Made by a program: the position numbers and the translations under genes. 64,000 nucleotides of DNA from positions 911-64,910 of the forward strand of contig JABAAW010000001.1 of assembly GCA_014238535.1 (NCBI GenBank). Reading direction: 5' to 3'. Positions 3,195 through 46,477 of this stretch are shown here, piece after piece (the stretch's first letter is position 1; every line of letters begins with the position of its first letter). A model generated the notes under the pieces. The model saw nothing but the letters and a program-made list of their open reading frames with translations. It made no database searches and had not been told where the DNA came from. The stretch is from Alphaproteobacteria bacterium. GTDB taxonomy: Bacteria; Pseudomonadota; Alphaproteobacteria; JABAAW01.

Positions 3195-3698
3195 TTGTTG
3201 AAGAGCATGCGTGGATATTTCGGGGTTGGCATTGAGAACTTGTCGAAGGCGCACAATGCAGGAGCACTATATCGCACGGCGCATGCGTTCGGAGCGGACT
3301 TCGTTTTTGCGTTTGGCGAGCGTCTGCCTACGCGCCTATTGCAGCAGGTAGATACATCGAAGGTTGGTCGTCATGTGCCTTTTTACTGCTATAGCGGGCT
3401 TGAGGAAATGGTTTTACCGAATGGCTGCGCGTTGGTAGGCGTTGAGTTATGCGCGCATGCACGCGAGCTTCCTGAGTTTGAACATCCCTCTCGTGCGGTA
3501 TATGTCTTTGGACCAGAGCGCGGCGATTTGTCATCGGATGTTTTAGACCATTGCCATAGCGTTATTAAAATTCCTACTCGTTTTTGTTTGAATGTAGGCA
3601 TTGCTTGCGCTGTCGTCATGTATGATAGAGGATTGAGCTTGGGAAGTTGGGGGGCTCGTAAGGGTTTTGGAGCGAGCAACAAAGGATATAAAACATAG
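3195..3698 (+). CDS. SpoU/TrmH-family RNA 2'-O-methyltransferase (small TrmL-like)
   Basis: 167 aa; the GIENLSKAHNAGALYRTAHAFGADFV pattern fits the SPOUT methyltransferase fold. Confidence 0.65.
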   Translation: MLKSMRGYFGVGIENLSKAHNAGALYRTAHAFGADFVFAFGERLPTRLLQQVDTSKVGRHVPFYCYSGLEEMVLPNGCALVGVELCAHARELPEFEHPSRAVYVFGPERGDLSSDVLDHCHSVIKIPTRFCLNVGIACAVVMYDRGLSLGSWGARKGFGASNKGYKT

Positions 3699-3739
3699 AG
3701 GCAACGGGCTAACTAGTTGTTAAGCTATTGCGCTACTAC

Positions 3740-4852
3740 TTATATTTTGCTCCGTCTATTATTAGCCTCTGCTCGCTTTGCAATTCCTAGCACATAGCGT
3801 TCTGCTAGCGTCCATTGTAATTTTGGTTTGCGTTTAATAAGTTTCTCGCAGTCTATGCCGTCGCCTAGCAACCGATATAGGTTGCGACTATTCCATCTTC
3901 TTACTTGCGAGCTTAGTCTTTCTCGCAAATGGAATAGGACAAATGGGCGCCAATGTGCGATGGCACTCCGCAGTTTAGCGCCATCGTCTCTGCCACGAGC
4001 TGCTAAACTTGTTAGACATTGTATATGGCGCATGACCGACCTGACGAGCACGATGCCATTAATTTGCGATACTTTTAACCTGCTTAGCGCGCGTGCGCAA
4101 TTCTCGCTATGACCGTCGAAGGCGTCGTATAAGATTTCGCCGATTCTCGTTTCTCGCCATTCGCTTAGTAGTTCCCATACTTGCTCGTCAATTTTACCAC
4201 CTGTGCCATAGTATAAAACGACTTTTTCTAACTCTTGCTTGGCAGCCATCCTATCTGCGCATAGGATTTCGCCCATCGCCTGTAGCAAGTGGTCTTTAAC
4301 TTCGATCTGCTCCTTATGCAGGACCGCCTTTATCATAGGAATAACATCGCTACTGCGTTCCTCATAGCATGCGAAGACCGTAGCCTTTTCTTCAAAGATT
4401 TTACGTAAAACAGCGTCTTTGCGCAAAGCCTGCCCCCGCACGATCAAGATGCTATCTCCGTTTTTGCTTTCTTCGTCCTTGGATAGCTCTTCTAGGCAAT
4501 CGGTAAATACTGCGCGCGCATCAAACTTATCGGCTCCACTAACTTCCAGCAGAACGATTTTTTTGCCACCAAACAAAGAAGGAGAACAAAGCATGTCGCG
4601 TAATTTTTCGCCGCCCTTGGTAAGTGCCTGTATACTTATCCGCACGACCCCTTCGTGGTTACTAGCAAGGCTACTTTTGCGACGTATGCCCCCTTCGCTG
4701 TCGTATCCTAATGCCGCTGCAAGCACGCGTTGTTCGTAGTAGCGCGCCAAGCCCTCGTTTGGTCCGTATAGCAACCAAGCGCGAGGCAAAGCCTTGTTGT
4801 TATTCTTTACTGCTGTTAGGCAAGCATCGACCTCGTTGCGCTTTAAGATCAC
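3740..4852 (-). CDS. holA: DNA polymerase III subunit delta
   Basis: 370 aa; N-terminal LLYGPNEGL clamp-loader delta pattern. Sits in the conserved leuS-lptE-holA arrangement. Confidence 0.7.
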   Translation of the reverse strand: MILKRNEVDACLTAVKNNNKALPRAWLLYGPNEGLARYYEQRVLAAALGYDSEGGIRRKSSLASNHEGVVRISIQALTKGGEKLRDMLCSPSLFGGKKIVLLEVSGADKFDARAVFTDCLEELSKDEESKNGDSILIVRGQALRKDAVLRKIFEEKATVFACYEERSSDVIPMIKAVLHKEQIEVKDHLLQAMGEILCADRMAAKQELEKVVLYYGTGGKIDEQVWELLSEWRETRIGEILYDAFDGHSENCARALSRLKVSQINGIVLVRSVMRHIQCLTSLAARGRDDGAKLRSAIAHWRPFVLFHLRERLSSQVRRWNSRNLYRLLGDGIDCEKLIKRKPKLQWTLAERYVLGIAKRAEANNRRSKI

Positions 4853-40150: not shown

Positions 40151-40298
40151 CTTTCCTACCTTTTCGTATTTATATTGAGGATTTTTGACAATAGTAGTTG
40201 TGAAGTCAATAGTGCAAGTGGCGGTTGTTACCTACTGCTGTTATGCGTGGCTTGCTTGTACTTTGGCTATTACGCTTTGTTTATTATACATTGAGTAT

Positions 40299-41270
40299 AT
40301 GGAAGAAGAAGTTATGGAGGCAGGTAATGAATTTGACTACTCTGAAGACAAGAATTTAGTTGATTGGTTTTTGGACGCTCGTTTTGCTGAGCGCAACATA
40401 GCGCAGAACACGATGTCTGCTTACCGCTCGGACTTGCGTGCTCTCGCCGATTTTTTGCACGCGCGCGGTAAATCGCTGAAGAGTGCTGAGCGCGATGATC
40501 TACAAGATTGGTATGGCTACCTGCACGATGTGCGCGAGCTAAAAGCAACGAGTTTGGCGCGTAACCTTGCTACGCTACGGCAGTTTTATCGCTTTGTGGT
40601 AGCTGAGCGGTTATGCCCGCAAGACCCGACTTTACACATGGAGTCGCCTCGATTTTCGCGTCTTCTCCCGCGAGTGCCTAGCGTACAGATGATGCGCTTG
40701 TTAATGGAAGGTATAGAGCATGATGGGAGATCGACGGCTACTAAAGCGAATTCGTTGCGCCTGCGGTTATTGGTTTCGCTATGCTACGGCTCTGGCCTGC
40801 GCGTCTCGGAGCTTGTTAGCCTCGAGCGAGGAGCACTTTCTAGGGAACCTCCTATTGCGAAGATAGTCGGCAAGGGAGACAAGATTCGTTTTGTTCCGTT
40901 GCTACCTAGCACATTTAGCGCATACGATTCTTACTTGAATGTGCGAGAAAAGTTCATTCCGAATTACCTTAAAGGAGTTTCACCGTATATTTTTCCCTCG
41001 ACTTCGCTCAAAGGTCACCTTACGCGTCAGCGTTTCGGTCAGCTGTTGAAGGATGCGGCAACGCGAGTCGGGCTTGATGCGAGCAAACTATCGCCGCACA
41101 AATTACGCCATGCCTTTGCGACACACTTGCTTGCGGGTGGTGCGGATTTACGTGCGATTCAAACGATGCTTGGGCATTCGGATATTTCTACGACCCAGAT
41201 TTACACGCACCTAGTAGACGAGCAGTTACAGAAGTTGGTGCATACGAAGCACCCGCTTGCAGATAAGTAG
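40299..41270 (+). CDS. xerD: Tyrosine recombinase XerD (chromosome dimer resolution)
   Basis: C-terminal HKLRHAFATHLLAGGADLRAIQTMLGHSDISTTQIYTH is near-identical in pattern to canonical XerD. The start is moved to MEEEVME; the track ORF starts at 40185 with an implausible hydrophobic leader. Confidence 0.85.
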   Translation: MEEEVMEAGNEFDYSEDKNLVDWFLDARFAERNIAQNTMSAYRSDLRALADFLHARGKSLKSAERDDLQDWYGYLHDVRELKATSLARNLATLRQFYRFVVAERLCPQDPTLHMESPRFSRLLPRVPSVQMMRLLMEGIEHDGRSTATKANSLRLRLLVSLCYGSGLRVSELVSLERGALSREPPIAKIVGKGDKIRFVPLLPSTFSAYDSYLNVREKFIPNYLKGVSPYIFPSTSLKGHLTRQRFGQLLKDAATRVGLDASKLSPHKLRHAFATHLLAGGADLRAIQTMLGHSDISTTQIYTHLVDEQLQKLVHTKHPLADK

Positions 41271-41291
41271 CAGTATACTCTCGTTTATTTC

Positions 41292-41780
41292 TTATGGTTT
41301 ATCTGCTGTCCTGTTTCTCAAGCAATCTTCTAGCGAACAGATAATCTTACCTGTCATTCTTCGCGAAATAGTGGAGTCAGATTGTGGTTCGCCTTTCATA
41401 GAATTTTTAAAAAAGTTTATTGTTTTTTGCACAATAGGTTGTGGCATTTCGCAAATCTCTTCTGCAGAAGAAACGTTATTTTTGTATAGGGTTTTTAGTT
41501 GAGAAAGATTGAGATAGCTTATGTGCTTTAACTTGTGGTGGCTTGAGGCATTATGGGGAACATAAGGATTTATCTCACCAGGAAGGATTTTTAACTGAGC
41601 TTCTGTAATATGCCATGGGTTACTATTGAAAAAGAAAATAGATTGTGGAACCGATAAAACCAAGAAACAAAATTTATATTTCTCATAAGTTCCACCTCCC
41701 TGTTCTTTAGGTTTTCTTAAATCGGTGTACTTTATTTTGCAAAAATACCCAACTTTTAGATTAAGTGAATCATCTTGCAT
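41292..41780 (-). CDS. Hypothetical 162-aa protein; candidate toxin partner of the upstream Panacea-domain gene (no family recognised with confidence; faint MazF/PemK-like residue pattern)
   Basis: ORF lies 23 bp downstream of the Panacea gene on the same strand, inside a ~33% GC islet. The N-terminal half is K-rich; the hydrophobic core is FCFLVLSVPQSIFFF...WHITEAQ. Confidence 0.45.
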   Translation of the reverse strand: MQDDSLNLKVGYFCKIKYTDLRKPKEQGGGTYEKYKFCFLVLSVPQSIFFFNSNPWHITEAQLKILPGEINPYVPHNASSHHKLKHISYLNLSQLKTLYKNNVSSAEEICEMPQPIVQKTINFFKNSMKGEPQSDSTISRRMTGKIICSLEDCLRNRTADKP

Positions 41781-41803
41781 TAAGATTTAAAAAAAATAAA
41801 ACA

Positions 41804-42370
41804 TCAGCAAACAAAAGCGAGAAACTTGGCGTTTTCTCTAATTTCTTCAAGAATTTCCTGCCTGTGAGGATTGTCATCCTTAACCATATCTTCGTAATTC
41901 ATTTTGTCATCTATATTATTTTTCCAAGCTTTATCATGCGAAATTCTAGATAATTCCGCAAAGCCTTTGCCTTTACAAAAATTTAAAGATTCTTTTAAAA
42001 AGTGGATATCGCTTCCCGACAAATAATCCAACTCTGGCTCTCGAAGAGCTATTATCTTTTTCCTTCTAGCATTAGGGGTAGAGATAGGATCAACTCTGAT
42101 GGACCGTTCTAAATCCTCATAAATATCAGGCTTGATAAAATTTGTTTCTTTCTTTATTAAATTGTAGACACACGAAGGAACAGGCCCATATTCCATAGCC
42201 CGATATTCGTCCCCTATTATAGGACGCCCATGTCTGTTCAGGTGCCATTTGTCAGCAAAATAGCAAATTTTACTTACGCTAAACTGATCAGCGTTTTTCT
42301 TCCTAGTAGCAATCCAAACAAGCACCTCAAGAGCTTTCTTTTGGTCAAAATGTTCGAATGCTTTAACCAT
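41804..42370 (-). CDS. Panacea domain (DUF4065; SocA/GepA-like) antitoxin-type protein
   Basis: N-terminal block SKICYFADKWHLNRHGRPIIGDEYRAMEYGPVPSCVYNLIKK matches the hallmark Panacea core (hydrophobic-K-L-x-K-L-L-Y-F-A-x-x-W, then G-x-P-hydrophobic, then W/A-x-x-G-P-V). 188 aa; first gene of a two-gene AT-rich operon. Confidence 0.6.
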   Translation of the reverse strand: MVKAFEHFDQKKALEVLVWIATRKKNADQFSVSKICYFADKWHLNRHGRPIIGDEYRAMEYGPVPSCVYNLIKKETNFIKPDIYEDLERSIRVDPISTPNARRKKIIALREPELDYLSGSDIHFLKESLNFCKGKGFAELSRISHDKAWKNNIDDKMNYEDMVKDDNPHRQEILEEIRENAKFLAFVC

Positions 42371-42479
42371 TTTGCATACCTATTTGATAATGAGCATTGG
42401 TTATTCTAATTAAAAGATGTAATTGTATCAGCATAGTTTATTTTTGCTTATAATATTTTGTATCTTATTGTATCTTTTT

Positions 42480-45934: not shown

Positions 45935-46330
45935 TGGGGCTCAAGGGATGGTGCCGGTTTCTGTTGCCAGGCACCGGCGAGCCCCGCCTAGACCTGTGTA
46001 GGGGTCTAGGGCTTGCGAATTCGCGCCCCGTTAATTTTAAAACCAACAGGGTGCTAGTTCAGATGTTGCTTTTGCTGCGGTTAAGCGGCTTGGGCAACTA
46101 CACGCGCATTATCGTTTGCACGTTATGATTTAGCCCGATAACAGCGGGACTCCACCGAATGCCGAGCGCGCCTTTTATTACGCACGTCGAATCTATTTCG
46201 CCCCCATCGTTTTCTCTGCACGCTACCTGCTATCAAAGAAGGCACTTTCAGAGAAAATGGTGGAGGCGCCGGGTACCGCCCCCGGGTCCGCAACGTCTAT
46301 TATGACGCATCGTTTAGCACTATAGCCAAA
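45935..46330 (-). ncRNA. ssrA: Two-piece (circularly permuted) tmRNA gene ssrA: acceptor piece ~46330-46258, intervening hairpin 46257-46206, coding piece 46205 to ~45935 (3' boundary approximate)
   Basis: All on the minus strand. A T-arm ccggg-ggcggta-cccgg is followed by the 3' acceptor strand cgcctcc, discriminator a and CCA (ending at plus 46258). The coding piece begins gggggcgaaauagauucgacg (the GAUUCGACG tmRNA 5' motif) and pairs as G1-G2-G3:U... with the acceptor strand. The tag ORF gca aac gat aat gcg cgt gta gtt gcc caa gcc gct taa (46119..46081) gives ANDNARVVAQAA-stop. The 52-nt intervening segment forms a 9-bp hairpin (uuuucucug/cagagaaaa), as expected for precursor processing. 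Confidence 0.75.
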
Positions 46331-46340
46331 AGGCAGTTCA

Positions 46341-46369
46341 CTCTAGCACATTTAGCCCCCTCTAACAAC
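46341..46369 (-). promoter_or_regulatory. Putative sigma70-type promoter of ssrA (minus-strand TTGTTA - 17 bp - TAGAGT)
   Basis: Read on the minus strand about 15-40 nt upstream of the predicted acceptor-piece 5' region. This is sequence inspection only. Confidence 0.3.
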
Positions 46370-46477
46370 CGAGCATAGGTAGTAATTTTCTCGCTCATAA
46401 AAAAGGTTGTTTTTTTTATTAAAATATCTATTTTTATAAATTGACTATGAAAGCAACGCAAATTTGGAGGAATTATA

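Follow-up and report, generated by a model that had tools for sequence, protein, structure and literature searches.

We analysed a stretch of 64,000 nucleotides (nt) from an alphaproteobacterium of the lineage JABAAW01 (assembly GCA_014238535.1, contig JABAAW010000001.1), referred to here as the window, in which a minus-strand open reading frame (ORF) had been predicted from the letters alone to encode an orphan candidate toxin with a faint MazF/PemK-like residue pattern. This ORF, here named panT, lies directly behind panA, the gene of a candidate Panacea antitoxin. The features of the locus are the following.

41292..41780, minus strand: panT, encoding a toxin candidate of 162 amino acids (aa), with an ATG start and a predicted beta-barrel of the MazF/CcdB type
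41804..42370, minus strand: panA, encoding a stand-alone Panacea (DUF4065/SocA-like) antitoxin candidate of 188 aa (PF13274, phrog_1281)
41781..41803, minus strand: panA-panT spacer of 23 nt, T-rich and without a Shine-Dalgarno motif
42403..42431, minus strand: sigma-70-like promoter candidate 5' of panA, CTGATA-17-TAGAAT, a consensus match only
41290..42470: low-GC island containing just panA and panT, between the gene for an RNase D-like exonuclease and the convergent xerD

The two genes share a strand, with panA 23 nt upstream, giving an antitoxin-first two-gene arrangement. The GC content of the island is 31-40% in sliding windows and the GC content at third codon positions (GC3) of the module is 30-34%, against about 48% in the flanks. 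Upstream of the module lies the gene for an RNase D-like 3'-5' exonuclease and on the other side the convergent xerD, and these flanks are housekeeping genes with their own intergenic regions. No second copy of panA or panT was found within the window. The spacing between the two genes is conserved across relatives at 22-23 or 38 nt, as would fit a bicistronic operon whose toxin is translated weakly or by coupling. In none of the genomes compared does a Shine-Dalgarno motif precede panT, which, together with the conserved length of the T-rich spacer, fits low or coupled translation of the toxin behind its antitoxin. A promoter-like site occurs upstream of panA only and its position is conserved; at the matching position, three GC-richer relatives (L009, L011, and L012) carry a near-consensus TTGACA-17-TATAAT/TAGAAT, again as consensus matches only.

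PanA matches the SocA_Panacea model (PF13274) with an E-value of 1.3e-20 and 74.9 bits (cut-off 25.7) and phrog_1281 with an E-value of 4e-23. It lacks any additional N-terminal domain and bears the GPV signature (G62, P63, and V64), a motif critical in Panacea (PMC8832971), within the string Y-G62-P63-V64-P-S that is invariant in eight PanA orthologues (alignment A5). Its C-terminal tail (residues 150-188) is acidic (isoelectric point (pI) 4.6) and conserved, with invariant Y159, M162, V163, P168, and F186. In its gene arrangement the pair fits the PanAT modules as defined by Kurata et al. 2022 (PMC8832971): the Panacea/DUF4065 domain scores above the Pfam threshold and bears the GPV signature, the spacer is short (22-38 nt in relatives), the pair is conserved, and the flanks are housekeeping genes.

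Two panT relatives at 58-60% identity were detected in a word-indexed search of 5.8 billion proteins, and three distant ones (E 1e-16 to 5e-12) came from an exhaustive hidden Markov model (HMM) search that covered 1.84 billion cluster representatives. The latter search also returned P0007, a repeat protein of 632 aa, which was dismissed as a low-complexity artefact. A profile search extended the panT family to 15 sequences, one of which is an 80-aa fragment. The 14 full-length relatives are 23-61% identical, have intact ORFs without exception, and all belong to uncultured Alphaproteobacteria. Every member with enough context shares the order fumarase, exonuclease, panA, panT, xerD (convergent), ffh, and rpsP, and the panA-panT pair is kept in at least seven distinct syntenic genomes. 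Gene callers also predict panT in independent assemblies. In six genomes the identity of PanA and PanT parallels that of host genes (r about 0.9) but drops faster; at an Ffh identity of about 60%, PanA is down to about 52% and PanT to about 30%. The ratio of nonsynonymous to synonymous substitution rates (dN/dS, Nei-Gojobori) is 0.32-0.48 for panT, 0.18-0.23 for panA, and 0.05-0.20 for the flanking genes. Given the conserved relatives and this dN/dS, panT is a real protein-coding gene under purifying but relaxed selection. The ORF at 41292..41780 is therefore genuine, and its translation contains all three stretches that had been quoted for their likeness to MazF.

The composition of the module stands apart from that of its hosts. 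In every syntenic genome (L001, L009, L010, L011, L012, and L013) it has a GC content of 34-42% and a GC3 of 30-43%, the host GC3 being about 45-72%, and it has thus not converged on the host despite apparent long vertical inheritance. Related PanAT modules at 37 unrelated loci are on average 7 GC points under their flanks. Between L009 and L012 (each 3384-4468), the flanking genes are 93-98% identical with a synonymous rate (dS) of 0.19-0.27, and PanA and PanT are 76% and 63% identical with a dS of 0.65-0.68, about three times that of the flanks. This suggests that recombination has replaced the allele in place or that substitutions accumulate faster locally.

The curated libraries Pfam, NCBIfam, PHROGs, and PADLOC contain nothing that credibly matches the 162-aa PanT; the hits obtained are at chance level (E 0.16-0.2). 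The Pfam PemK_toxin model (PF02452; gathering score 23.1 bits) matched neither PanT nor six family members even at E<=10. Against PDB sequences, the profile of 14 PanT sequences (alignment A3) retrieved nothing below an E-value of 0.7 and no MazF. An earlier profile of three sequences (A1) found designed helical repeats only, which we rejected as a compositional match to the C-terminal helices. The description of PanT as an orphan thus holds for curated domain libraries; it fails for the protein itself, which belongs to a large family.

This family became visible through the antitoxin. We collected PanA relatives at 30-43% identity together with 88 loci matched by the PanA alignment in metagenomes and viral contigs, and found that these loci nearly always carry a short ORF directly downstream. 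Among the unique ORFs downstream of related PanA genes, 64 of 72 form one family of about 120 aa (hereafter the wide family), with the consensus GDVIwI.D…PP.PKmvVCi.P..GfFfRIN[ST]…HPFL.HDSy.EC in an alignment of 52 sequences (A6, loci L020-L107). None of eight wide-family members examined matched NCBIfam, and in three of the eight the Pfam PemK model aligned over nearly its full length at sub-threshold scores of 13.6-14.5 bits, which leaves the family without a Pfam or NCBIfam model. A tblastn search of plasmid and phage collections with PanT and two wide-family members gave no match, nor did a phmmer search of the PDB with one wide-family member.

The wide family connects PanT to MazF. Its profile matches 14 of 14 PanT family members (per-sequence E-values of 1.6e-9 to 3.6e-4) and also the MazF proteins of Staphylococcus aureus (4e-8) and Bacillus subtilis (8e-6). 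With hhalign, the wide family aligned to the PanT family at a probability of 96.5-96.6% (E 6e-10 to 1e-9, 108-120 columns) and to a profile of five MazF sequences at 62-68% (E 5e-5 to 7.5e-5) over the full MazF length; the five references had been checked against Pfam (E 6e-24 to 3e-38). When the wide-family profile was run with hmmsearch against 177,635 distinct PDB sequences, the only matches below an E-value of 0.1 were three S. aureus MazF entries (E 0.005-0.017). Reversed and 20 column-shuffled control alignments scored 7-21, compared with 60 and 31 for the real pairs, and an unrelated control profile (PanA) reached an hhalign probability of 0.15%. Judged by these profiles, PanT is a divergent branch of the large Panacea-associated toxin family and is remotely homologous to bona fide MazF, through a transitive link only. 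PanT owes its 162 aa to three insertions, which lengthen the beta1-beta2 hairpin, add a helix-containing loop behind beta4, and place another loop ahead of the last helix. The insertion after beta4 carries the invariant residues P67, I70, and N71.

Several related loci have an intact PanA followed by a short toxin ORF of 50-78 aa (L015:3527-3763, L016/L021 at about 3585-3773, L039:660-875, L045:977-1129, L052:1955-2146, and L105:2989-3183). The L015 ORF carries a frameshift when compared with the toxin of 121 aa in L014, a near-identical locus. Such shortening is the pattern expected where inactivation of a toxin is tolerated, and assembly errors are another possible source. Pairs of PanA and a MazF-like PanT also occur inside phage genomes, between capsid genes (PF19821 and PF05396; L018:3001-4010 and L019:2013-3022), and eight more related PanAT loci (L100-L107) come from IMG/VR viral contigs.

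Structure prediction points in the same direction. AlphaFold2 supplied with only three sequences produced an unusable model (mean predicted local distance difference test score (pLDDT) of 42); with the 14-sequence alignment A3 it returned a confident one (pLDDT 85.7, predicted template modelling score (pTM) 0.79). It comprises seven strands (12-22, 31-43, 46-52, 62-65, 88-91, 96-97, and 107-111), two short helices (67-73 and 100-105), and two long ones (114-129 and 140-156). Foldseek comparison with the PDB placed Mycobacterium tuberculosis MazF-mt1 first (probability 0.99), with Escherichia coli MazF also leading, and comparison with BFVD gave three PemK-like/endoribonuclease phage proteins on top. 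MazF structures rank above CcdB in all three structure libraries. PanT is therefore predicted to adopt the SH3-like beta-barrel fold of the CcdB/MazF type.

Residue equivalences were read from the profile alignments, in which HMMER and hhalign give the same register. Three sites fall on functional positions of MazF.

41673..41675, minus strand: codon of K36; in the alignments, the MazF residue at this site is the catalytic Arg that opens beta2 (R25 for B. subtilis and S. aureus, R29 for E. coli)
41622..41627, minus strand: codons of N52-S53; the catalytic Thr that closes beta3 in MazF (T48/T52) is aligned with N52
41517..41519, minus strand: codon of S88, paired in the alignments with the serine of the D-S-V motif in the MazF proteins of B. 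subtilis and S. aureus

K36 is invariant in all 14 PanT family members, and in the wide family the site holds Lys in 47 of 52 sequences and Arg in three of 52. Position 52 is Asn or Ser in the PanT family (7/7) and Asn in 49 of 52 wide-family sequences. The next residue, S53, aligns with the residue after the catalytic Thr and is always Ser or Thr in the PanT family (51/52 in the wide family). S88 is invariant (14/14) and is Ser in 48 of 52 wide-family sequences, as part of an H-D-S motif. Mutagenesis has shown the Arg and the Thr to be essential in several MazFs (PMC10893535; PMC7354611). Active M. tuberculosis MazF4 carries Lys (K19) at the Arg site, and MazF7, likewise active, carries Ser (S51) at the Thr site (PMC7354611); we found no precedent for Asn at the latter. 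PanT is a basic protein (pI 9.2).

The same alignments decide how well the likeness had been read by eye. The second stretch (YKFCFLVLS, compared with RPAVVLS) and the third (HISYLNLSQLKTL… compared with DSVILLEQIRTID…, followed by the C-terminal helix) stand in exactly the register of the profiles. In the first, the strand GYFCKIKY matches, and the pairing of KEQGG with the E-x-x-G (SEQxG) of MazF is probably a coincidence, because it lies in the lineage-specific hairpin-loop insertion that is absent from the wide family. The resemblance as a whole was not above chance by direct profile test and is borne out by the fold and the transitive profile link.

Compared with MazF/PemK/Kid/EndoA proteins (PF02452; for example PDB 4MZM, 4MDX, 5CO7, and 6KYT), PanT lacks significant direct sequence similarity, has Lys for Arg and Asn/Ser for Thr, and carries an extra C-terminal helix in addition to its insertions. 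The usual antitoxin of MazF is MazE/PemI, whereas the partner of PanT is a Panacea protein (PF13274) and not an antitoxin of the MazE/PemI type. The closer comparison is with the PanAT modules. Kurata et al. 2022 included PemK among the toxin domains of these modules and described the PanT clusters T5/T6, in which a stand-alone PanA precedes a "hypothetical protein" in many phyla and the toxin is recognisable as EndoA/PemK/MazF only by HHpred (up to 99.5%) (PMC8832971). In the same study, the MazF-like PanTs of Pseudomonas moraviensis and Bifidobacterium ruminantium were toxic, were neutralised by PanA, and specifically inhibited translation, and a complex with the cognate PanA was demonstrated for several pairs (PMC8832971). 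Ernits et al. 2023 (PMC10440598) name MazF/PemK as a toxin fold that recurs and demonstrate direct neutralisation by a stand-alone Panacea. The pair described here resembles T5/T6 in its two-gene, antitoxin-first layout, in the "noNTD" (stand-alone) form of Panacea, in the closeness of the two genes (short spacer or overlap), and in having a PanT that is annotated as hypothetical, lacks a CDD or Pfam match, and is MazF-like only via profiles and structure. It differs in the length of PanT (162 aa against about 120, with the three insertions) and in its distribution: a single clade of uncultured Alphaproteobacteria, where it is fixed at one site, behind the fumarase and RNase D-like exonuclease genes and ahead of xerD and ffh. 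The wide family of about 120 aa matches the T5/T6 clusters in every descriptive property and on that basis is likely to correspond to them.

We consider it probable that panT is the toxin gene of an antitoxin-first PanAT module and that its product, of MazF/PemK fold, acts by MazF-type RNA cleavage held in check by direct binding of PanA. That the gene is real, how its operon is arranged, the predicted fold, the remote homology, and the residue equivalences are shown by the analysis; the RNase chemistry, the toxicity, the mode of neutralisation, and the role are inferred. Free PanT would cleave RNA (mRNA, rRNA, or tRNA) without a metal ion, as MazF does, with K36 substituting for the catalytic Arg and N52/S53 for the Thr that stabilises the transition state, and translation would stop as a result. 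PanA would be made first, probably in excess, and would neutralise PanT as a type II antitoxin by direct binding, perhaps with its conserved acidic C-terminal tail. The pair may serve in addiction or in phage defence.

The likeness to MazF finds no support when tested directly: hhalign of the 14-sequence PanT alignment A3 with the MazF profile, in local and global modes, gave a probability of at most 1% (E 0.054), which is not significant. The profile-profile comparison proposed at the outset consequently fails in its direct form and succeeds in two steps via the wide family. The prediction of a CcdB/MazF-like barrel came out as anticipated, in a confident model whose Foldseek matches are led by MazF, and the idea of a very divergent MazF-like toxin with a Panacea antitoxin is supported by both the fold and the transitive homology.

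PanT could instead be an attenuated or domesticated remnant, descended from a toxin-antitoxin (TA) pair and no longer toxic in this clade, with a host function or none, which we regard as unlikely. Its constant chromosomal position during a divergence that took Ffh down to about 60% identity, its co-divergence with host genes (r about 0.9), a dN/dS 2-5 times that of the neighbouring genes, and the three lineage-specific insertions would all agree with such a history, as would the lack of toxicity in E. coli of eight PanTs tested by Kurata et al. 2022 (PMC8832971). However, all 14 full-length members have an intact ORF with K36, S/T53, and S88, and dN/dS remains well under 1. An upstream PanA with undamaged GPV motif and tail is kept in every case, and the antitoxin-first operon architecture is preserved.

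Similarly unlikely is a toxin that has the MazF/CcdB fold but leaves RNA uncut and instead binds a target such as gyrase, which it would poison in the manner of CcdB, or another protein. CcdB does belong to the same superfamily, and it scores under every MazF match in all three structure libraries, is not the closest relative of PanT, and has no sequence link to it; the link of the wide family goes to MazF. CcdB binds gyrase through a C-terminal Trp-Gly-Ile, and the PanT C-terminus (…RNRTADKP) is unlike it and lacks such gyrase-binding residues. The residues conserved in both families sit at the catalytic and RNA-contact positions of MazF, and the MazF-like PanTs tested so far inhibit translation (PMC8832971).

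We give an equally low probability to a further reading. The variant K…(I)N[ST]…(H)DS shared by PanT and the wide family would in that case define a mechanistically distinct class within the MazF fold, with a chemistry or target unlike that of the Arg/Thr MazF RNases, and the module would have been domesticated in this clade. Vertical inheritance beside xerD and ffh through deep divergence, together with the foreign AT-rich composition and fast evolution, would point to a host-beneficial role; were domestication true, this could be that of a standing antiphage sensor-effector.

A type VI system like SocAB of Caulobacter crescentus, in which PanA would act as a ClpXP adaptor that hands the toxin over to be degraded, and replication would be blocked when the toxin binds the sliding clamp, is very improbable. 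Both systems have an alphaproteobacterial host and a Panacea antitoxin gene ahead of the toxin, SocA itself carries a Panacea domain (PMC8832971), and PanA weakly matches the NCBIfam SocA_antitoxin model (NF047745, E 2.4e-7). This match covers residues 23-76 only and scores 30.6 bits against a cut-off of 190, which places PanA far outside the SocA equivalogs. PanT moreover has a predicted MazF fold with motifs at the MazF sites, and neutralisation by PanA is generally independent of ClpXP or Lon (PMC8832971). The sole string in PanT resembling the clamp-binding motif Q-L-x-h-L, QLKIL (62-66), was rejected; it forms a beta-strand and its last position is variable.

Finally, panT might be taken for a spurious or degenerating frame within AT-rich inserted DNA, with no functional pair, given the absence of a credible curated-family match and of a Shine-Dalgarno motif and the low regional GC. 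Conservation and selection already refute this: the 14 orthologues, as distant as 23% identity, are all intact and keep the motifs, and dN/dS is 0.3-0.5. The confident fold prediction and the gene calls in independent assemblies also speak against it.

A divergent MazF-like toxin neutralised by Panacea was already published and validated in 2022, and the present finding is incremental: PanT, taken as the MazF-fold toxin of a PanAT module, is an enlarged, lineage-restricted addition to a pairing that is itself not new. A "hypothetical protein" without annotation thereby becomes a MazF-fold toxin candidate that can be tested, with K36, N52/S53, and S88 named as candidates for a role in catalysis. 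The large Panacea-associated toxin family lacks a library model, and its 52-sequence alignment A6 could seed one. The locus is also a rare case of a TA pair held at a single chromosomal position across a whole clade of small-genome Alphaproteobacteria, which makes it a useful natural series for the study of toxin-antitoxin co-evolution.

Two further observations concern the neighbourhood. The mechanically called xerD ORF (40185-41270, plus strand) has a TTG start and a hydrophobic N-terminal extension and would encode 361 aa, compared with 316-356 aa in the gene calls of other assemblies and in homologues; an internal ATG near 40296-40314 is probably where translation really begins. A two-piece (permuted) transfer-messenger RNA (tmRNA) gene of alphaproteobacterial type, in line with the host, is located at 45950-46372 on the minus strand (RF01849, 175.5 bits).
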